A stretch of 57,113 nucleotides of DNA from Corallococcus exiguus (GCF_012985225.1 NZ_JABEKZ010000024.1), one strand, 5' to 3'; positions 26,482-38,922 are shown, counted from the stretch's first letter. The notes: generated by a model not told the origin, from the letters alone. Numbers and translations are program-made.

Positions 26482-26838
26482 GTGAACATCCTGGTCGTCG
26501 ACGACGATTACGAGCTGTGCACCATGCTCTCTCGCTACCTGGAGATGCATGGCTACACCGTGTTCTCGGCGTCGGACGCGCTCCAGGCCCTGGACATCAT
26601 GGAGCGTCACCCCGTGGGGCTGGTCATCACCGACTACCTGATGCCCCACCTGGACGGCATCCACTTCACGGAGATGCTGAAGGCGGATCCCCGCTTCCAG
26701 CGCATCTCCGTCCTGATGATGACCGCCAGCACGGACGCCAACATCTCCGACCGGGGCCTGCGCAAGGGCGTCGCCATCACCCTGCAGAAGCCCCTGGACA
26801 TGGGGCAGCTGCTCAACCTCGTGCGCTTCGCGGAGTAG
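26482..26838 (+). CDS. Single-domain response regulator (CheY-like receiver)
   Basis: ILVVDDD...VITDYLMP...MMTAS..K matches the receiver-domain Asp and Lys signature. Confidence 0.7.
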   Translation: MNILVVDDDYELCTMLSRYLEMHGYTVFSASDALQALDIMERHPVGLVITDYLMPHLDGIHFTEMLKADPRFQRISVLMMTASTDANISDRGLRKGVAITLQKPLDMGQLLNLVRFAE

Positions 26839-26969: not shown

Positions 26970-28661
<1,692 letters not shown>

Positions 28662-30836: not shown

Positions 30837-32225
30837 TCAGCCCTGGCCCTGCGGGGGCGGGGGATTCTGACGGCGCTCGGCCGGGGTGGCTTCCAGGTCC
30901 TGCGCCGCCATGTAGACGACGTTCCGGGTGCCGCGCTTGCCCCGGTACATGGCCCGGTCGGACAGGTCCAGCAGGTGGTCCTTGTCCTGGGCATGCTCCG
31001 GGAAGCTGGCCACGCCGATGCAGGTGGTGAGCTTGAGCGCCAGCCCCTCGCGGCCCAGGAACTGATGGGTCTCCATGGTGCGGCGGATGCGCTCGGCGAC
31101 CTTGAGGGCCCCGCCGGAGTCCGTGCCGCGCAGGAGCACCACGTACTCGTCGCCGCCGAAGCGCGCCACCACGTCCGGGTCGCGCACGCAGCCCTTGAGC
31201 ACGCGCGCGGCCTCCACCAGCACCCGCGAGCCCACCAGGTGCCCGTGCGTGTCGTTGATGGCCTTGAAGCGGTCCAGGTCCAGGAACAGCAGGGAGAAGG
31301 GGCGCTCCGTCTGGAGGGCCTCGTTCACCTCGCGGTCCAGCACCAGGTGCAGGTAGCGCGTGTTGAACAGGCGGGTGAGATCATCGACGTAGGCCAGGTC
31401 CTCCACGGCGGCGAAGCGGCCCAGGTTGCGCAGGGCCAGCGCCCAGTTGCGCACGAGGAAGCCCACGGTCTCCGCGTGGTGCTCCGCGGGCGCGTTGTCG
31501 TGGAAGAGCACCGCGTGGCCCAGCACCAGCTCGCCGTCCACGGCGGGGAAGGAGAGGGTGCGCGGCCAGGGAACTTGAAGTCCGTCGAGCTCCACCTGCG
31601 TGCGCGTGCCCGAAAGCCGCTCGATGAGCAGCGGGACGAGCGCCTCGTGCAGGTCCACCGGCAGCCCGCGCATGCCGTGCGAGCGGAAGCCCGTGCCGCC
31701 AGGGTCCCGCTCCAGGAGCATCACCGCGGAGGCGTTGGCCATGGACTCCAGCGCGTCGGACGCGGCCGTGGACAGCCGCTCGCGGTCGAGCGTGGTGGCG
31801 ATGCGCTGGCCCGCCTCCAGCAGCGCGACGTGCTGGCGCAGGGACGCGTTCTCACGCATCAGGTCGCGCGTGGTGAGCGCGCGGCGCAGCGCGTGCTCCA
31901 GGGCCTCCGGCGCCACGGGCTTGACCAGGTACTCCGCCGCGCCGCTCTTGATGGCGCGCACCGCGGGGGCCACCTTGTCCAGGCCGGTGATGACCAGCAC
32001 CTCCACGCCGGGGTAGCGCTCGCGCACGTGGCGAAGCACCTCCATGCCGTCGCCGCCGGGGAGGATGAGGTCCGTCACCACCGCGTCGAACCGCGCCGCG
32101 GAGAGTGCGGCCTTCGCGTCCGCCACGGTGGGCACCGCCGTGACCAGGTGTCCCGCGGCCGTGAGGTAGTCGCCGTAGAGATTGCGGGCGATCTTTTCGT
32201 CGTCGACGAGGAGCAGTCGCGCCAT
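30837..32225 (-). CDS. Response regulator with receiver, GAF-like and GGDEF (diguanylate cyclase) domains
   Basis: The receiver is LLLVDDEKIARNLYGDYL...VVTDLILPGGDG. The GGDEF active-site motif is RFGGDEYVVLL. Confidence 0.75.
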   Translation of the reverse strand: MARLLLVDDEKIARNLYGDYLTAAGHLVTAVPTVADAKAALSAARFDAVVTDLILPGGDGMEVLRHVRERYPGVEVLVITGLDKVAPAVRAIKSGAAEYLVKPVAPEALEHALRRALTTRDLMRENASLRQHVALLEAGQRIATTLDRERLSTAASDALESMANASAVMLLERDPGGTGFRSHGMRGLPVDLHEALVPLLIERLSGTRTQVELDGLQVPWPRTLSFPAVDGELVLGHAVLFHDNAPAEHHAETVGFLVRNWALALRNLGRFAAVEDLAYVDDLTRLFNTRYLHLVLDREVNEALQTERPFSLLFLDLDRFKAINDTHGHLVGSRVLVEAARVLKGCVRDPDVVARFGGDEYVVLLRGTDSGGALKVAERIRRTMETHQFLGREGLALKLTTCIGVASFPEHAQDKDHLLDLSDRAMYRGKRGTRNVVYMAAQDLEATPAERRQNPPPPQGQG

Positions 32226-33090
32226 GACTGTTCAGGGCTTAGCACCCAACGCTGGAAGGCTGCTAGGGTCCCGGGCCGTGCCCTTTGAAAGCGGACGGCG
32301 GCTCTGCCTGCTGGTGGAGGCCGGAGAGACGCGCTACGCGGTGGAGGCCACCTCCGTCATCGAGGTCGCGATGCCGGGCGCTCGCGGCGCGAGTCTGCGC
32401 GGCGTACTGGAAGTGAAGGACCTCGCCGCGTTGCTCGGCGGCCTGCCTGAGGAAGTGCCGGGCATGGTGGTGGTCCTGGACGTCAGCCCCACGCTCGCGG
32501 TGCGGGTGCGCGCCGTGGTGGAGGTCGCGGACGTCGCGAGGGATCCGTTCTTCCTGCTGCCTCCGGGACTGGCGGACTCGCTGGCGCCGCTGAGCCGGGG
32601 CGCGGTGCTGCACAAGGACCGGCTGTACCTGGAGCTCATCGTGGAGGCGCTGCCGCACCGGGCGGGCCCCCGGGCGACCCCGCCAGAGCCCCGGCCCGTG
32701 CACTATGCGGACGAGCCCCCTGAGCGGGCGCTGGTGCTGGAGTCCCAGGGGGTGCTGTTCGGCGTCCCGCTGGGTTGCGTCTCCCAGGTGGTACCCCGGG
32801 GCGAGGCGTTCAGCGTCCTCCCGGTGCAGAGCGGGCCGGTGGCGGGCGTCTATCCCCACGCGCAGGCGCTATGGCCCATCTGTTCGATTCCAGCGCTGCT
32901 GGGTGCGCCGGCCCAGGCGGAGGAGTTGTTCGTCCTCACGGAAATGGCGGGGCGGAACGTGGGGCTGGCGGCCAACCGGGTGCTGGGTGTGCTGCAGAAG
33001 TTCAAGCCGGCCGAGCTTCCCGGAACGTTCCGGGCGCCGGGGCTGCCGGATCCGGTGATGTTACTGGACCTGCAGCGCATGTTTTCTTGA
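32224..33090 (+). CDS. CheW-like domain protein, probably two CheW-like modules
   Basis: The pattern RLCLLVEAGETRYAVEATSVIEV... recurs in the second half (ALVLESQGVLFGVPLGCVSQVV). The start is uncertain; ATG 32224 overlaps the divergent start at 32225. Confidence 0.5.
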   Translation: MTVQGLAPNAGRLLGSRAVPFESGRRLCLLVEAGETRYAVEATSVIEVAMPGARGASLRGVLEVKDLAALLGGLPEEVPGMVVVLDVSPTLAVRVRAVVEVADVARDPFFLLPPGLADSLAPLSRGAVLHKDRLYLELIVEALPHRAGPRATPPEPRPVHYADEPPERALVLESQGVLFGVPLGCVSQVVPRGEAFSVLPVQSGPVAGVYPHAQALWPICSIPALLGAPAQAEELFVLTEMAGRNVGLAANRVLGVLQKFKPAELPGTFRAPGLPDPVMLLDLQRMFS

Positions 33091-33207
33091 TCGGCCCAAC
33101 GCGCGAATCCTAAGCTTCTCCGATTGACACAGGGCGTGCAGGCAGGCTTGCTCGCCCGAAATCTCAAACGAATTCAGGGGGGTATGCGCCCCCCGAGGCC
33201 GGAGCCG

Positions 33208-34470
33208 ATGCCCAAGAATCTACTGATCGCCGACGACTCGCTCACCATCCGCAAGGTGATCGGGATGATCTTCGCGACGGAAGACTTCCAGGTGACCGCG
33301 GTGGACAACGGGCTGGACGCCATCTCCCGCACGCGCGAGCTGCGTCCGGACGTGGTGCTCGCCGACGTGATGATGCCGGGCAAGAGCGGCTACGAGGTCT
33401 GCGAGGCGCTCAAGGGCGACCCCTCCACGCAGGCCATCCCGGTGCTGCTGCTCGCCGGCACCTTCGAGGCGTTCGACGAGAACCGCGCGAAGGCCGCCCG
33501 GGCGGATGACCACATCACCAAGCCCTTCGAGAGCCAGATCCTCCTCGACAAGGTGAAGGCGCTGGTGGGCCAGAAGTCCAACACGATGCCCGCGTCCGCC
33601 GCGACGCGCATTCTGCCCCAGACCTCCGCCCCGAGCGCTCCAGTCAGCGCGCCGCCCGCCGCCGCCGTGCCGCCGGGTGCGCGTCCCGCGGGTGCGCCGC
33701 CTCCGGGCGCCATGCCGCCGGGTGCGCGTCCTCCTCCGGGTGCCGTGCCTCCGGGCGCGCGTCCTCCGGGCGCTGGTGTGCCTCCTCCTCCGGGTGCGGC
33801 GCGTCCGCTGCCGGGCGCTGTTCCTCCGGGCGCGCGTCCTCCGGGTGCGCCGCCTCCGGGCGCCATGCCGCCGGGTGCACGTCCTCCGCCGGGTGCGCCG
33901 CCTCCGGGCATGGGCGCGCGTCCTCCGGGTGCGCCGCCTCCGGGCGCCATGCCGCCGGGTGCGCGTCCTCCTCCGGGTGCCGTGCCTCCGGGCGCGCGTC
34001 CTCCGGGTGCGCCGCCTCCGGGCATGGCCGCGCGTCCTCCGGGCCCTGGCGCCCCGAACATCCCGGGCGGCTTCCCGCGTCCTCCGGGCGCCGCGCCGCT
34101 GCCGTCCGCGCCCCCGCCCGCCGCGGTGCCTCCGGCCGCCCGTGCCCGGGATCCGTTCGGGCTGGGCGCTCCGGCCGCCCCGCCCGCGGCGCAGGCCCGC
34201 ACGGAGAGCATCCGCATCGAGGACTCGCTGCCCGAGCCCAGCGGCGCGGAGGAGATCTCCCTGGACATCGGCGGCCCCTCGCCGGCGACTCCGCCCGCGC
34301 GCGCCCGTCCGGCCGCGGATGGCGGAGAGGCGCTGCTGCGCGAGGCGCTGTCGAAGGCGTCCCGCGAGGTCATCGAGAAGATTGCCTGGGAGGTCGTTCC
34401 GCAGCTGGCGGAGACCATCATCCGGGAAGAGCTGGAGCGGCTCATCAAGGACCGCGAGACCCAGCATTGA
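33208..34470 (+). CDS. romR: RomR-like polarity/motility response regulator: receiver domain, long Pro-rich repeat linker and conserved C-terminal helical region
   Basis: Starting at MPKNLLIADDS gives 420 aa, the length I recall for RomR. There are about 20 degenerate PGARPPGAPPPGAMP repeats, and the C-terminus is ...EVIEKIAWEVVPQLAETIIREELERLIKDRE. Confidence 0.55.
   Translation: MPKNLLIADDSLTIRKVIGMIFATEDFQVTAVDNGLDAISRTRELRPDVVLADVMMPGKSGYEVCEALKGDPSTQAIPVLLLAGTFEAFDENRAKAARADDHITKPFESQILLDKVKALVGQKSNTMPASAATRILPQTSAPSAPVSAPPAAAVPPGARPAGAPPPGAMPPGARPPPGAVPPGARPPGAGVPPPPGAARPLPGAVPPGARPPGAPPPGAMPPGARPPPGAPPPGMGARPPGAPPPGAMPPGARPPPGAVPPGARPPGAPPPGMAARPPGPGAPNIPGGFPRPPGAAPLPSAPPPAAVPPAARARDPFGLGAPAAPPAAQARTESIRIEDSLPEPSGAEEISLDIGGPSPATPPARARPAADGGEALLREALSKASREVIEKIAWEVVPQLAETIIREELERLIKDRETQH
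33655..34075 (+). repeat. Tandem degenerate ~45-nt repeats encoding the Pro/Gly/Ala-rich linker
   Basis: Repeated ccgggtgcgcgtcctccgggtgcgccgcctccgggcgccatgccg units are visible directly in the sequence. Confidence 0.7.
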
Positions 34471-34523
34471 TTCGCAGTCCCCTCTGATTCCCCGCCGGCC
34501 CCGTCGGGGGCCGGCCGCTTGCA

Positions 34524-37500
34524 ATGACTGACACGACTGAACTGTCCAAGGCCTACGAGCCCTCCGAAGTGGAGGCGCGGTGGTACAACCACTGGCTGGA
34601 GCGCGACTACTTCCGCGCCGAAGCCCCTTCCTCCAAGCCGCCGTTCAGCATCGTGCTGCCGCCGCCCAACGTGACGGGCAGCCTGCACATCGGCCACGCG
34701 CTCACCGCGACCATCCAGGACATCCTCACGCGCTGGAAGCGGATGAGCGGCTTCAACGCGCTCTGGCTGCCCGGCACGGACCACGCGGGCATCGCCACGC
34801 AGATGGTGGTGGAGAAGGAGCTCAAGAAGACGGAGGGCAAGAGCCGCCACGACCTGGGCCGCGAGGCGTTCCTCGAGCGCGTCTGGACGTGGAAGGGCAA
34901 GTTCGGCGCGCGCATCGGTGAGCAGCACCGCTACCTGGGCGCGTCCCTGGACTGGAGCCGCGAGCGCTTCACCATGGACGAGCAGTCCTCGGCCGCGGTG
35001 CGCGAGGTGTTCGTCCGGCTGTACGAAGAGGGCCTGATGTACCGGGCCCAGAAGCTGATCAACTGGTGCCCGTCCTGCCGCACGGCCCTCTCCGACCTGG
35101 AAGTGGAGCACGAGGAGAAGAACGGCTCGCTCTGGCACATCCGCTACCCGGTGAAGGGCACGGAGCGCTTCCTCACCGTGGCGACGACGCGCCCGGAGAC
35201 GCTGCTGGGCGACACGGCCGTCGCCGTGCACCCGGAGGATCCGCGCTACCAGGACCTCATCGGCAAGCGCGTGGCGCTGCCGCTCACCGACCGTGAGATT
35301 CCGGTCATCGCGGACGGCGAGCTGGTGAACATGGAGTTCGGCACCGGCGTGGTGAAGGTCACGCCCGCGCACGACTTCAACGACTACCAGACGGGCCTGC
35401 GCCACAAGCTGCCGATGCTGTCCATCCTGGACGAAGCGGCGCGGATGACGAAGGACACCGGCAAGTACGCGGGCCTGGAGAGCCGGGAGGCGCGCACGCA
35501 GGTGCTGGCGGACCTGACGGAGCTGGGCCTGCTGGAGAAGGAGGAGCCGCACAAGCTGAACGTGGGCACCTGCCAGCGCTGCACCACGGTGGTGGAGCCG
35601 CGCCTGTCGCCGCAGTGGTTCATCAAGATCGAACCCCTGGCGAAGCCGGCCATCCAGGCCGTGGAGGAGGGCCGCACCAAGTTCGTCCCCGAGTCGTGGA
35701 CGAACACGTACTTCCACTGGATGAACAACATCCACGACTGGTGCGTGAGCCGCCAGCTGTGGTGGGGCCACCAGATTCCGGCGTGGTACTGCGCGGCGTG
35801 CACCCCGGCGGAAGAGCGCTCGAAGGACACGGCGGACGTCATCGTGTCGCGCACGGCGCCGGAGTCCTGCCCGAAGTGCGGCGGCAAGGAGCTGACGCAG
35901 GATCCGGACGTGCTGGACACCTGGTTCTCGTCCGCGCTGTGGCCGTTCTCCACGCTGGGCTGGCCGAAGCAGACGGCGGACCTCCAGACCTTCTACCCGA
36001 CGTCCGTGATGGAGACGGGCCACGACATCATCTTCTTCTGGGTCGCCCGGATGATGATGATGGGCCTGCATTTCATGAACGACGTGCCCTTCCGCACCGT
36101 GTACCTGCACGCGATGGTGCGCGACGAGAAGGGCGAGAAGATGTCCAAGACGAAGGGGAACGTCATCGATCCCCTGGACGTCATCCTCGGCGCGAAGGCG
36201 GAGTCGCTGCAGCCGTCCTTGCGCAACCGCTTCCCGCAGGGCATGCCCGCGCACGGCGCGGACGCGCTGCGCTTCACGTTGGCGTCGCTCACGCAGCAGG
36301 GCCGTGACATCAAGCTGTCGATGGACCGCCTGGGTGGCTACAAGGCGTTCTGCAACAAGCTGTGGAACGCCAGCCGCTTCGCCCTGATGAACATGGGCGA
36401 CTTCAGCCTGGACAAGACGCCGCTGGAGGGCCGCAAGCTGACGCTGGCGGACCGGTGGATCCTCTCCCGCCTGCAGAAGGCCACCGAGGAGACGCGCGCG
36501 TCGCTGGAGGCGTTCGGCTTCGCGGAGGCCGCGTCCACGCTGTACCAGTTCCTGTGGGCGGAGTTCTGCGATTGGTACATCGAGCTGGCGAAGGGCTCGT
36601 TGTACGGCGACGACGCGGAGGCCAAGGACACCACGCGCGCGGTGCTGGTGACGTGCCTGGACCGCATCCTGCGGCTGATGCACCCGTTCATGCCGTTCAT
36701 CACCGAGGAGATCTGGCAGAAGCTGCCGATGTCCCGGCCCACGGAGAGCATCTGCATCGCGGCCTACCCGGCGCCGGAGACGGCGTGGGTGGACGCGGCC
36801 GCGGAAGGCGAGATGGCGCCGGTCATCGCGGCCATCGAGGGCCTGCGCACGCTGCGCGGCGAGAGCAACCTGCCGCCGTCCGCCAAGGTGAAGGCGGTGG
36901 TGCAGAGCCCGGACGCGACGACGCGCGAGCTGTTGGAGCGTTGGCGCGCGTACCTGATGCCGCTCGCGGGCCTGTCCGAGGTGGTGGTGGGCCCCCCGGG
37001 CGCCAAGCCTCCGCAGGCGGCGGCGTTCGTGAGCGGCAACCTGGAAATCTACGTGCCCCTGGCGGGCCTGGTGGACCTGGACGCGGAGCGCGACCGCCTG
37101 AAGAAGGAGATCGTCCGCGCCGAGCAGGAACTCGCCGGTTTGCAGCGCAAGCTGGACAACCCGAACTTCGTGGCCCGTGCTCCGCCGGACGTGGTGGAGA
37201 AGGACAAGGCCCGGGTGGCGGAGCTCCAGGAGCGCACGGTCAAGCTGCAGGATCACCTCCAGCGCATCGCCCCGGAGCCCCCCATGTCCGAGACGCCGTC
37301 GCCGTTGCCGGGCAGCACCGAGTCCGAAGCCCCTGAAGCGTCCGAGTCCCTCGCGCCTGAGAGCGCCCAGGTGAAGGTGGCCACCGAGCCGCAGGCACCG
37401 AAGGACGAAGCGGTGAACCTGGGCCAGGAGCTGAAGGGCGAGATTGAAGCCGAAGAGGCTTCGCAGGCGCCCCAGGCCGCGGATCCGATGGTGGAGGAGG

Positions 37501-38003
37501 CCCTCAACAAGCTGCGCGAGGGCACCAAGGAAGGGCTGTCCCCGGCGGACCACCACGACCTGGGCGTCGCGTACATGAGCATGGGCCTCGTGGACGACGC
37601 GATGCGCGAGTTCGACCGGGCCAAGGAGGGCGGCGACGCCCGCGAGGCGCCGGAGGGCTCGGCGAAGCCGGTGAAGAAGGCTCCGACGAAGAAGGCCTCC
37701 GCGAAGAAGGCGGCGGTGAAGAAGGCCCCTGCGAAGAAGGCCTCCGCGAAGAAGGCGGCGGTGAAGAAGGCCTCCGCGAAGAAGGCGGCGAGCAAGAAGT
37801 CCGCCGCGAAGAAGGCCCCTGCGAAGAAGGCTTCCGCGAAGAAGGCAGCGGGCAAGAAGACGGCCGCGAAGAAGGCGGCGGTGAAGAAGGCTCCTGCGAA
37901 GAAGGCTTCGGCGAAGAAGGCGGCGGGGAAGAAGACCGCCGCGAAGAAGGCCGCGGCGAAGAAGACCACTCGGGGCAAGCCGGCTCGCAAGGCGCGCCGG
38001 TAG
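34524..38003 (+). CDS. valS: Valyl-tRNA synthetase with a ~240-aa C-terminal extension ending in a Lys/Ala-rich histone-H1-like tail
   Basis: HIGH ([14 protein letters not shown]) and KMSKS (KMSKTKGN) motifs, editing domain and coiled-coil anticodon-arm domain. The ORF then continues through an acidic linker and a TPR-like helix into about 17 AKKA-type repeats ([17 protein letters not shown]...) before the stop at 38003. Confidence 0.9.
37668..37962 (+). repeat. Tandem 27/54-nt repeats (gcgaagaaggc...), the coding repeat behind the KA-rich tail
   Basis: Near-identical direct repeats are visible in the nucleotide sequence. Confidence 0.7.
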
Positions 38004-38012
38004 GAGGCGGAA

Positions 38013-38891
38013 GTGCAGCAGGATTATCTCGATCGGCTCATCGCGCTGTCCCTCGACGAGGACCTGGGTGCTGCGGGGGACGTCACCTCGCTGGCGGTGG
38101 TCCCCGCCGAAGCGGAGGGCAGCGGTGAGCTGGTCGCGAAGGAGCAGATGATCGTCGCCGGCCTGGACGCCTTCGTCCGCGTCTTCCACATGGTGGACGC
38201 GGAGGTGGAGGTGGAGGTCCTCAAGCGCGACGGCGAGGAGATCAAACCGAAGGTGGTCGCCGCGCGCGTCCACGGCAAGCTACGTTCGCTGCTGGCCGCG
38301 GAGCGCACGGCGCTCAACCTGGTGCAGCGCGCCGCCGGCATCGCGACGCTGGCCCAGCAGGCGATGACCTCCGTGCGGGGCTCGAAGCTGCGGGTGCTGG
38401 ACACGCGCAAGACGCCGCCGGGCATGCGAGGCCTCGCGAAGCACGCGGTGCGCATGGGAGGCGCGTCCAACCACCGCTTCGGCCTCTTCGACGGCATCCT
38501 CATCAAGGACAACCACATCGCGGCGGTAGGTGGCGACATCACCGAAGCGGTGCGCCGCGCGAAGCTGAACGGTCCCCGGCTGGTGAAGATTGAAGTGGAG
38601 GTCACCAACTTCAAGCAGCTGGAGGAGGCCATCGCCGCGGGCGCGGACGTCATCATGTTGGACAACATGGACGACGCGCAGATCCGCGAAGCGGTGAAGC
38701 TGACGGCGAGCCGCGTGCCCATCGAAGTGTCGGGCGGCGTCACGTTGGACCGGCTGCCCCGGCTGGCGAAGCTGGGCGTGGACTTCGTGTCGATGGGCGC
38801 GCTGACGCACTCGGCGCGGGCCATGGACCTGTCGCTGGAGATCGCGACGACGAAGAAGTCCACGCGCAAGCCCCGCTCCGCGCAGGGCTGA
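38013..38891 (+). CDS. nadC: Nicotinate-nucleotide pyrophosphorylase (carboxylating), quinolinate phosphoribosyltransferase
   Basis: 292 aa. It begins [31 protein letters not shown]... and includes [41 protein letters not shown]..., a typical NadC. GTG start 10 nt after the valS stop. Confidence 0.85.
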
Positions 38892-38922
38892 AGCGGTCAG
38901 CGGTCTTCACGAATCCGCAGAA

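Follow-up and report, generated by a model that had tools for sequence, protein, structure and literature searches.

A histone-H1-like C-terminal extension of myxobacterial valyl-tRNA synthetase found in fused, split and lost states

In eukaryotes, several aminoacyl-tRNA synthetases carry a disordered, Lys-rich extension on a canonical enzyme, including the N-terminal domains of yeast glutaminyl- and valyl-tRNA synthetase (GlnRS and ValRS) and the appended domain of human LysRS, and such domains bind RNA non-specifically (PMC2992532, PMC6213541, PMC4394549). Yeast and human ValRS both possess an appended tRNA-binding domain, and Arc1p acts as a tRNA-binding cofactor in trans (PMC4394549). Lineage-specific domains that localize or tether ValRS have also been described, namely CAAD, a transmembrane insertion anchoring the cyanobacterial enzyme, and a GST-like N-terminal domain in the vertebrate enzyme, which associates with EF1 (PMC4893482, PMC4394549). 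Here, we describe a ValRS gene (valS) in a stretch of 57,113 nucleotides from Corallococcus exiguus (GCF_012985225.1 NZ_JABEKZ010000024.1; this whole stretch is called the window below), the product of which runs past its canonical C-terminus into an acidic linker, a small helical unit and a long Lys/Ala-rich tail.

This protein is a canonical bacterial ValRS plus a 244-residue extension, and it shares with the eukaryotic examples a disordered Lys-rich appendage on a canonical synthetase. In contrast to those examples, the host is bacterial, the appendage is C-terminal and far more repetitive (xxxKK repeated 20 times), an acidic linker and a tetratricopeptide repeat (TPR) lie ahead of it, relatives encode it as a separate gene, there is no sequence homology, and nucleic-acid binding is a prediction. 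The CAAD and vertebrate GST-like domains are likewise unrelated to the myxobacterial extension and have different targets.

All features of a class Ia ValRS are found in the first 915 residues, i.e., the HIGH and KMSKS signatures (HIGH at 55-58, KMSK at 539-542), the CP1 editing domain with TTRPET at 221-226 and a second motif at 273-284, the anticodon-binding domain and the C-terminal coiled coil. Pfam assigns tRNA-synt_1 to residues 20-599, Anticodon_1 to 643-792 and Val_tRNA-synt_C to 851-915, and the product exceeds the cut-offs of both NCBIfam valS equivalog models, TIGR00422 (1135.6 bits, cut-off 612.1) and PRK05729 (1254.3 bits, cut-off 704). The alignment with the solved T. thermophilus ValRS (1GAX, 862 aa) spans residues 6-915 and stops there. 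Since both this alignment and the Pfam domains end at residue 915, residues 916-1159 (nt 37269-38000) are surplus. By composition and by the 1GAX alignment, the Lys-rich extension has no counterpart in canonical bacterial ValRS. The ValRS body is confidently predicted in a full-length AlphaFold2 (AF2) model built with 62 orthologues. The GC content at third codon positions of the open reading frame (ORF) is 0.95, and the nearest protein is a C. exiguus valine--tRNA ligase with 99% identity, from a cluster of 33 member sequences.

The extension falls into three parts of very different character (Table 1). Residues 916-986 are rich in Glu (20%), Ala (18%) and Pro (15%), with a net charge of -12, and AF2 assigns a predicted local distance difference test (pLDDT) score below 50 to residues 920-986 (920-970 and 973-986) and predicts a helix at 966-979 with low confidence. 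Next come three predicted helices (988-1001, 1007-1019 and 1023-1035; net charge of residues 987-1035, -6) with pLDDT of 68-83 in the full-length model, the two TPR helices reaching mean values of 86-96 when the unit is modelled alone. From residue 1039 to 1159 the pLDDT is again below 50, and about 32 in the tail. The tail, residues 1047-1159, consists of 38% Lys and 36% Ala, contains no Asp or Glu and carries a net charge of +47; it is built of 20 xxxKK pentapeptides in exact 15-nt register, followed by a 12-residue end, and AAG is used for all 43 of its Lys codons. Tandem Repeats Finder reports matches of 73%, 78% and 79% at periods of 15, 30 and 45 over 37667-37964, so the repeats have diverged at the DNA level. 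A sequence search of the PDB with the tail gave no meaningful match, and no solved structure resembles residues 916-1159 by sequence. No other gene with a Lys-rich tail was found in the 57-kb window.

A sequence-only reading of the same DNA had already proposed a ValRS ORF running about 240 residues past the coiled coil, an acidic Glu/Pro-rich linker and a histone-H1-like Lys/Ala tail, and all three are borne out, the last as a likeness in composition, with the Pfam HC2 match described below. The TPR-like element that it recognized is present as well, although its "helix pair" proves to be the last two of three helices. On the other hand, the roughly 17 KKAxAKKA repeats that it counted are in fact the 20 xxxKK pentapeptides, and the near-perfect nucleotide repeats that it described are contradicted by the Tandem Repeats Finder values.

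Table 1. Features of the valS locus, in window coordinates; mean identities are those of the C. exiguus protein to 61 orthologues.
Feature	Coordinates	Strand	Mean identity	Basis or remark
valS ORF	34524..38003	+		1159 aa including extension; TAG stop 38001-38003; uninterrupted frame
Canonical ValRS body, residues 1-915	34524..37268	+		Pfam, NCBIfam, 1GAX alignment, motifs, AF2
Catalytic and editing core			0.77	
Anticodon-binding domain			0.70	
ValRS coiled coil, residues 851-915	37074..37268	+	0.66	Pfam Val_tRNA-synt_C
Acidic Glu/Ala/Pro-rich disordered linker (916-963) and leader (964-986)	37269..37481	+	linker 0.23; leader 0.37	composition, AF2
Junction element	37274..37286	+		GGAG 37274-37277, 6-nt spacer, ATG 37284-37286 (Met921)
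Conserved three-helix unit, residues 987-1035 (capping helix and one TPR motif)	37482..37628	+	0.75	AF2, conservation, profiles
Polycationic histone-H1-like tail, residues 1047-1159	37662..38000	+	0.38	composition, repeats, AF2, Pfam HC2
nadC ribosome-binding site and start	38002..38015	+		AGGAGG 38002-38007, overlapping valS TAG stop; GTG start 38013, 5 nt on
nadC (quinolinate phosphoribosyltransferase)	38013..38891	+		TIGR00078, 303 bits
romR-like gene (receiver domain, Pro-rich repeats, conserved C-terminal tail)	33124..34470	+		53 nt upstream of valS
CheW-like gene	32182-33090			upstream of romR-like gene
Response-regulator ORF	30837-32225	-		position matches GGDEF response regulator MXAN4463

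The extension is a genuine, old and lineage-specific module of the ValRS of Myxococcaceae and Archangiaceae, and its architecture is family-wide rather than an oddity of one strain. In 87 of the 120 nearest ValS clusters, a Lys-rich tail follows a helical motif of the LGVAY type. The comparison of ValS lengths across relatives for which the sequence-only reading had called gives 1044-1332 residues in Corallococcus, Myxococcus, Pyxidicoccus, Citreicoccus, Hyalangium, Stigmatella, Aggregicoccus, Melittangium and many metagenome-assembled genomes (MAGs). When the pattern Y[ML]xMGLVDD was scanned over one genome per species (185,579 species), 122 stretches were found, 104 of which encode a relative of the helical unit, so that at least 104 species genomes of this group have it; 80 of these confirmed loci were kept for detailed examination, and in these the unit lies inside valS. 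They bear Myxococcaceae- or Archangiaceae-type names with three exceptions, labelled "Comamonas sp.", "Proteobacteria bacterium" (a MAG) and "uncultured delta proteobacterium" (a MAG). With few exceptions, the motif ORF of the 80 loci goes on into a K/R-rich tail, 45-285 residues long; three loci are cut by a contig end, and in one, L073, the tail is not Lys-rich. Two basic residues nearly always end these tails. KMSK lies in the same ORF as the motif in all 71 loci that reach far enough upstream. In the locus labelled Comamonas sp. KCTC 72670 (BNCN01000007.1), an open stretch of 1363 aa contains a valS of Myxococcus type that has the TPR unit and, after it, 253 residues of Lys-rich tail, and the assembly is probably mislabelled or contaminated.

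A curated NCBIfam model of the long-form ValRS, NF011492 (PRK14900, 1044 positions), exists, and the C. exiguus protein passes it with 1821.8 bits (cut-off 1783), profile positions 3-1020 being matched by its residues 1-1103. Our literature searches returned no description of a myxobacterial ValRS extension, and MXAN4460 of Myxococcus xanthus was found only as a neighbour of romR. As far as we found, the long form is thus already modelled in databases and seemingly unstudied in the literature.

Conservation is distributed very unevenly along the extension. The helical unit is about as conserved as the catalytic core and is the best-kept part of the extension (Table 1). In the tail, composition and charge periodicity are kept, and sequence and length are not; charge autocorrelation is strongest at a lag of 5 in 37 of the 75 tails and at a lag of 6 in another 15. 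A 5-residue indel in the repeat array occurs even within C. exiguus, and within the extension fast turnover is limited to this array. With helices conserved in sequence and a tail kept only in composition, the unit behaves as a specific binding element and the tail as a bulk-electrostatic one. One clade of fused forms is without the TPR unit, and its named members are Melittangium, Cystobacter, Archangium and Vitiosangium.

Relatives of the C. exiguus gene preserve the extension in several other states. It is absent, with nadC directly after valS, in P0096, P0090, P0105, P0119 and P0080, and these short-ValS relatives retain the same neighbourhood. In the loci L081 and L082, a 918-aa valS ends LSRI-TGA and is followed by ACTGGAGGAACG, a separate 136-aa gene and then nadC; the product of the small gene starts with MSERTPEE, is acidic and Gly/Met-rich and then basic (ARRTARK...SRR), and is without a TPR unit. 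This split recurs in diverged form in L089, with a different spacer and a gene cut by the contig end. In all three loci the separate gene is preceded by GGAGG and encodes an acidic-then-basic protein beginning MSE. In L090, the TGA of valS overlaps the next start codon as ATGA (GGAGGGGAAAC-ATGA; GAAGGAGGGGAAAC-ATGA), which is the arrangement expected of translational coupling, and the 163-aa product (P0428) comprises the leader, the TPR unit with an SgmX-like FKKGV, and a K-rich tail, with nadC next. P0190, which comes from another sample, is a diverged case (75% identical to P0428 in the best local alignment) in which the genes are ordered likewise and the junction differs. A metagenome scan found no longer contig of this split-with-TPR lineage, and a homology search gave one relative. 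These separate-gene forms, which occur in two lineages, identify the extension as an autonomous protein-coding unit, which is always fused to, overlapping or adjacent to valS.

The junction between the two parts retains features of a gene start. In the long-linker fused genes, R-I-A-P-E-x-x-M-[S/P]-E comes after the coiled coil. Of the 48 species genomes that have an R-[ILM]-x-P-E junction, 47 carry CCGGAG, compared with a fraction of about 0.50 predicted by codon usage in these ORFs, and an ATG lies exactly 6 nt past GGAG in 45, with two intervening codons that vary (23 distinct strings). The internal ORF of the window, 37284-38003, would encode 239 aa. The junction of L081 reads ATC-TGA-ACTGGAGGAACG-ATG-TCC-GAG (ATC-TGA-ACT-GGA-GGA-ACG-ATG-TCC-GAG) and that of the window ATC-GCC-CCG-GAG-CCC-CCC-ATG-TCC-GAG; in both there are 15 nt from the Ile codon to the ATG, a Shine-Dalgarno-like site in the same place, and Met-Ser-Glu next. 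Thus, a change at a single stop codon would interconvert the L081 split state and the fused state of the window. The GGAG-N6-ATG element may be either a relic of a separate gene or a working internal start for a free 239-aa protein. A large short-linker clade (RIAPVEVKIAPP...) has neither an ATG nor a Shine-Dalgarno-like site at its junction and keeps the TPR unit and tail, so in this clade, which is without an internal start signal, the fusion protein must be the functional form.

The direction of these changes was approached with a neighbour-joining tree of the ValRS core, midpoint-rooted without an outgroup and without the ValRS body of the L090 lineage. Fused forms with the TPR unit lie on all deep branches, short forms in three to four nested clades, and TPR-less fused forms in a single clade. 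This topology favours several losses together with a secondary fission in the L081 lineage. The unit itself must nevertheless have come from outside, because it is homologous to TPR proteins, and the split-with-TPR proteins look intermediate between SgmX-type and fused ValRS-type units. In the 963-aa ValS P0088, the extension is reduced to a decayed remnant, EQYELGVSYLGGASGPL (EQYELGVSYLG). The gene call P0136 (477 aa) runs from the conserved junction Met through the tail into a frameshifted nadC. P0088 and P0136 illustrate the lability of the junction, in evolution and in assemblies. We hold the anatomical and evolutionary account as a whole with high confidence.

The origin of the helical unit was traced with profiles. 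As a lone sequence it is a weak match to Pfam TPR_2 (14.1 bits, cut-off 27; E = 0.052). Profile A1, made from 22 orthologous helical units, gave 2171 matches at E <= 1e-3 among 1.84 billion representatives. The best full-length matches that were checked are ValS C-terminal fragments, and most others belong to hundreds of multi-TPR proteins matched repeatedly through profile positions 55-80, which hold the TPR motif. A subset aligned over positions 8-82 shares FDLAxELxxEL ... FKKGV ... HYxLGIAYKEMGLxDDAIxEF, and for four of its members scanned with NCBIfam the best model was SgmX, at scores well under its cut-off. The notion that the unit is a mobile domain of many protein types was discarded, as full-length matches comprised only ValS C-terminal fragments and SgmX-like multi-TPR proteins.

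The ValRS unit itself matches positions 814-924 of the SgmX model (NF052243; E = 5.9e-10), and its 38.1 bits against a cut-off of 1800 exclude full-length membership (14 TPRs, ~1060 aa). An hhalign comparison of the ValRS unit with the SgmX-like set reached a probability of 99.5% over 79 columns, a value that is partly circular, the set having been picked with the ValRS profile. Foldseek against the PDB returned only TPR proteins, with a consensus TPR and MamA on top, and superposition on these gave a root mean square deviation of 0.4-0.5 A over 29-31 columns, with E-values that are not significant, the unit being too small to discriminate. With a single TPR and a capping helix, the unit falls short of the tandem array (>=3 repeats) of TPR domains proper. 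Taken together, profile and motif evidence indicates that the helical unit shares its ancestry with the "leader + first TPR" segment of SgmX-like proteins. SgmX is an M. xanthus type IV pilus activator with 14 TPRs, in which the mimB frameshift after Gly802 deletes TPR12-14, the MglA-GTP-binding domain (PMC7668184, PMC9811614). Judged by SgmX coordinates, the ValRS unit is the counterpart of the acidic leader and first TPR of this C-terminal region; in contrast to SgmX, it has one TPR, not 14, and is not a family member.

A related pattern was seen in three large non-ValS TPR proteins, P0170, P0175 and P0159, each of which contains a helix + HYDLGVAYxxMGLxDxAIxEF unit two to three times; in P0170, an acidic FxLxxxL leader precedes one copy. 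This arrangement is possibly a module with which blocks of TPRs generally begin in Myxococcota, and no dedicated Pfam model exists for it.

The tail resembles bacterial H1-like proteins in composition. Its match to Pfam HC2 (PF07382), which composition drives, is just above the cut-off of 40 (45.9 bits when the tail is scored by itself, 41.5 when the entire protein is), and it falls below those of the NCBIfam models hist_H1_lk_Burk (44.7 against 80) and Hc2 (29.1 against 135) (NF038052, NF038053). A search with the tail alone, which returned only proteins of <200 aa and is silent on other Myxococcus proteins, retrieved short proteins with Lys/Ala tails named in their sources as HU, PhaF-type phasins, topoisomerase I, ribosomal protein L21 and MetJ, as well as proteins carrying Pfam PF02201, PF02410 and PF01258. 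We take these three families to be SWIB, RsfS and a DksA/TraR-type zinc finger, respectively. Such matches speak to the occurrence of tails of this kind and not to homology. The search shows that similar tails are repeatedly attached to proteins that, by name or domain, would act on DNA, RNA or ribosomes.

Several H1-like tails of bacteria have been described, including those of Chlamydia Hc2, AlgP, PhaF, actinobacterial HupB/HupS and TopA, and the ValRS tail shares with them its composition and its short-period Lys/Ala repeats. Among them, PhaF interacts with the nucleoid (PMC7590123), AlgP organizes polyphosphate granules (PMC9239181), and actinobacterial TopA is likewise a nucleic-acid enzyme with a lysine-repeat C-terminus, which stabilizes the enzyme-DNA complex (PMC5714199). 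Here, however, the host is a tRNA synthetase rather than a DNA-acting protein, and the likeness is compositional. The layout of the whole extension also recalls a protein of the same bacterial group, M. xanthus CarD, in which an acidic segment is followed by a basic DNA-binding region in an intrinsically unfolded C-terminal domain (PMC4374960). CarD differs in its host protein, in the RGRP AT-hooks of the M. xanthus version and in having no TPR unit. An H1-like version of the CarD domain is reportedly found in other myxobacteria.

The surroundings of valS are conserved as well. In M. xanthus, the romR locus comprises MXAN4462, with two CheW domains, MXAN4461 (RomR) and MXAN4460 (Val-tRNA synthetase) (PMC2034494), and the window repeats its order of CheW-like gene, romR, valS and nadC. 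The C-terminus of romR was found upstream of valS in 66 of the 80 loci, the other 14 including ones in which valS starts too near the locus end for the romR position to be covered, and nadC was downstream of valS in 77 of 80. The overlap of AGGAGG with the valS TAG stop suggests translational coupling of valS and nadC. A scan of 32000-39500 found no plus-strand terminator between romR, valS and nadC, and minus-strand terminator-like signals at 37695-37959, inside the repeat, were rejected as artefacts of CTTCTT runs. Two antisense ORFs, 37253-37990 (-) (245 aa, "FFAAAFF") and 33390-38273 (-) (1627 aa, opposite valS and romR), were set aside as by-products of high GC and of the AAGAAGGC repeats. 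The long Pro-rich region of the RomR-type gene consists of near-tandem PPGARPPGA-type repeats. Further upstream, the ORF list contains a GroEL-like ORF (547 aa) at 27018-28661 (+) and, just before it, a small response-regulator ORF at 26482-26838.

What might the extension do? The reading we favour, to which we give an even chance, is that it was formerly a ValRS-linked accessory factor, the polycationic tail of which would bind tRNA or other nucleic acid non-specifically. A separate small gene between valS and nadC would have been fused in frame to the coiled-coil end of ValRS, its old ribosome-binding site and ATG still being visible. The tail may then serve as a flexible, sequence-non-specific arm capturing tRNA or other RNA/DNA, which could raise the local concentration or affinity of tRNA(Val) (lower Km) or tether the enzyme to nucleic acid, and would act in cis as eukaryotic Lys-rich domains and the trans cofactor Arc1p do. 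Electrostatic tempering of the tail is a probable role of the acidic linker, and the TPR unit is probably a protein-docking surface, to the ValRS body or to a partner. A conserved unit joined to a tail kept in composition is the pattern expected of a bulk-electrostatic binder on a specific docking unit. The parts of this proposal differ in strength: binding of nucleic acid or another polyanion by the tail is likely, and tRNA capture specifically is a tentative proposal that we rate somewhat below even. Non-specific nucleic-acid binding is the most plausible role of the extension.

In the split forms (P0428, P0190 and the L081 gene), the proposed factor would resemble Arc1p, p43 and Trbp111, being likewise small and synthetase-linked, with putative docking and nucleic-acid-binding parts (PMC4394549). 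These forms differ in having no GST-like or OB-fold (EMAPII/Trbp111) domain and instead a single TPR and an H1-like disordered tail; in contrast to Arc1p, their association with ValRS is suggested by gene linkage and fusion.

Several observations weigh against the accessory-factor proposal. The likeness of the tail to H1 and Hc2 is compositional, and the NCBIfam cut-offs are missed. Several lineages have lost the whole extension, with nadC directly after valS, so ValRS function as such does not require it. The Melittangium/Cystobacter/Archangium/Vitiosangium clade and the L081-type split proteins are without the TPR unit, and docking through it cannot be universally required. The net charge of the coiled coil is +2.0 in tail-less and +0.9 in tailed ValRS, figures uncorrected for phylogeny that give no clear sign of compensation for lost tRNA contacts. 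Finally, no feature favours tRNA over rRNA, DNA or polyphosphate as the putative ligand of the tail.

Of the alternatives, the best surviving, although unlikely in our estimate, is a tether to the nucleoid or DNA, or a moonlighting histone-like protein. According to this hypothesis, a small H1-like nucleoid-associated protein happened to be encoded after valS, and its fusion, with five codons between the ValRS end and the old start, was nearly neutral; the relevant product may be the free 239-aa protein, the fusion merely placing some ValRS on the nucleoid. The closest compositional matches of the tail are on the DNA-acting HU, PhaF-type phasins and topoisomerase I, plus SWIB-family proteins, Pfam HC2 is above its cut-off, free-standing versions of the extension exist, and the acidic-then-basic layout is like that of the CarD DNA-binding domain (PMC4374960). 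The internal start signal, too, is kept even at a synonymous site, as the CCGGAG count shows. On the other hand, the short-linker clade, having no junction signal, makes the extension only as a fusion, and the linkage to valS is kept in every state, whether fused, overlapping or adjacent, which argues for a ValRS-related role over that of a general nucleoid protein.

Another possibility, which we regard as quite improbable, is that the tail tethers ValRS to a different polyanion or assembly, such as ribosomes (for Val-tRNA channelling), polyphosphate granules or a condensate. A long, disordered tail with a charge of +47 would suit this role, similar tails are found on proteins named ribosomal protein L21 and on RsfS-family proteins, AlgP provides a precedent on polyphosphate granules (PMC9239181), and ValRS is tethered elsewhere, to EF1 in vertebrates (PMC4394549) and to membranes in cyanobacteria (PMC4893482). 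The argument is purely analogical, however, and the sequence does not select among polyanions.

It is very unlikely, in our judgement, that the extension is primarily an adaptor to the polarity and motility machinery, with the SgmX-type TPR docking ValRS to MglA-GTP or to a protein with a receiver domain, for which RomR and FrzS are examples, and the tail being secondary. The unit does align to the SgmX model and to SgmX-like proteins, its matched positions fall within the C-terminal part lost in the mimB truncation (PMC7668184, PMC9811614), and romR lies immediately upstream of valS family-wide. But the binding domains of SgmX are TPR triads (PMC9811614) and only one TPR is present here, the romR-valS-nadC order also occurs in extension-less lineages so that synteny does not track the module, and some tailed lineages no longer have the TPR unit.

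The probability is negligible that the extension is an assembly or annotation artefact or a strain-private recent repeat expansion, both of which the sequence-only reading had entertained: tandem repeats are error-prone in assembly and one 5-residue length difference exists within C. exiguus, but the same frame and architecture recur, far beyond chance, in the 33-member cluster at 99% identity, in the 104 species genomes and in many species that were assembled independently, with complete genomes from Corallococcus, Myxococcus and Melittangium among them. A recent event is refuted as well by the 87 of 120 nearest clusters with the extension and by the curated long-form model.

Returning to the accessory-factor reading, it could be combined with a working internal start. 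That valS yields dual products, the free one with trans-acting cofactor activity and without any link to polarity, is conceivable but doubtful. A bolder version, for which we see only a slim chance, is that an Arc1p-like, free 239-aa acidic-TPR-H1-like protein is made from the internal GGAG-N6-ATG beside full-length ValRS, and that the SgmX-type TPR unit, by its homology to the first TPR of the MglA-GTP-binding domain, docks ValRS or the free protein to the neighbouring MglA/RomR/FrzS polarity module; if this were true, tRNA charging or nucleoid organization would be coupled to the cell poles.

Synthetases with Lys-rich, nucleic-acid-binding appendages are known, as are bacterial proteins with H1-like tails. 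Less ordinary, and new here, are the conserved SgmX-type unit, the coexistence of split, fused and lost states, and the conserved start signal at the junction. Nucleic-acid-binding domains appended to synthetases, and tRNA cofactors acting in trans, are seen as elaborations of the eukaryotic enzymes, and the same idea would be realized here in a bacterial family with different parts. The states preserved in nature, i.e., a separate overlapping or adjacent gene, a fused form, a fused TPR-less form and loss, constitute a natural experiment on the origin and contribution of an appended domain, and M. xanthus (MXAN_4460) offers a tractable host for tests. The conserved internal start signal means that an essential housekeeping gene of these bacteria possibly encodes a second, histone-like protein.

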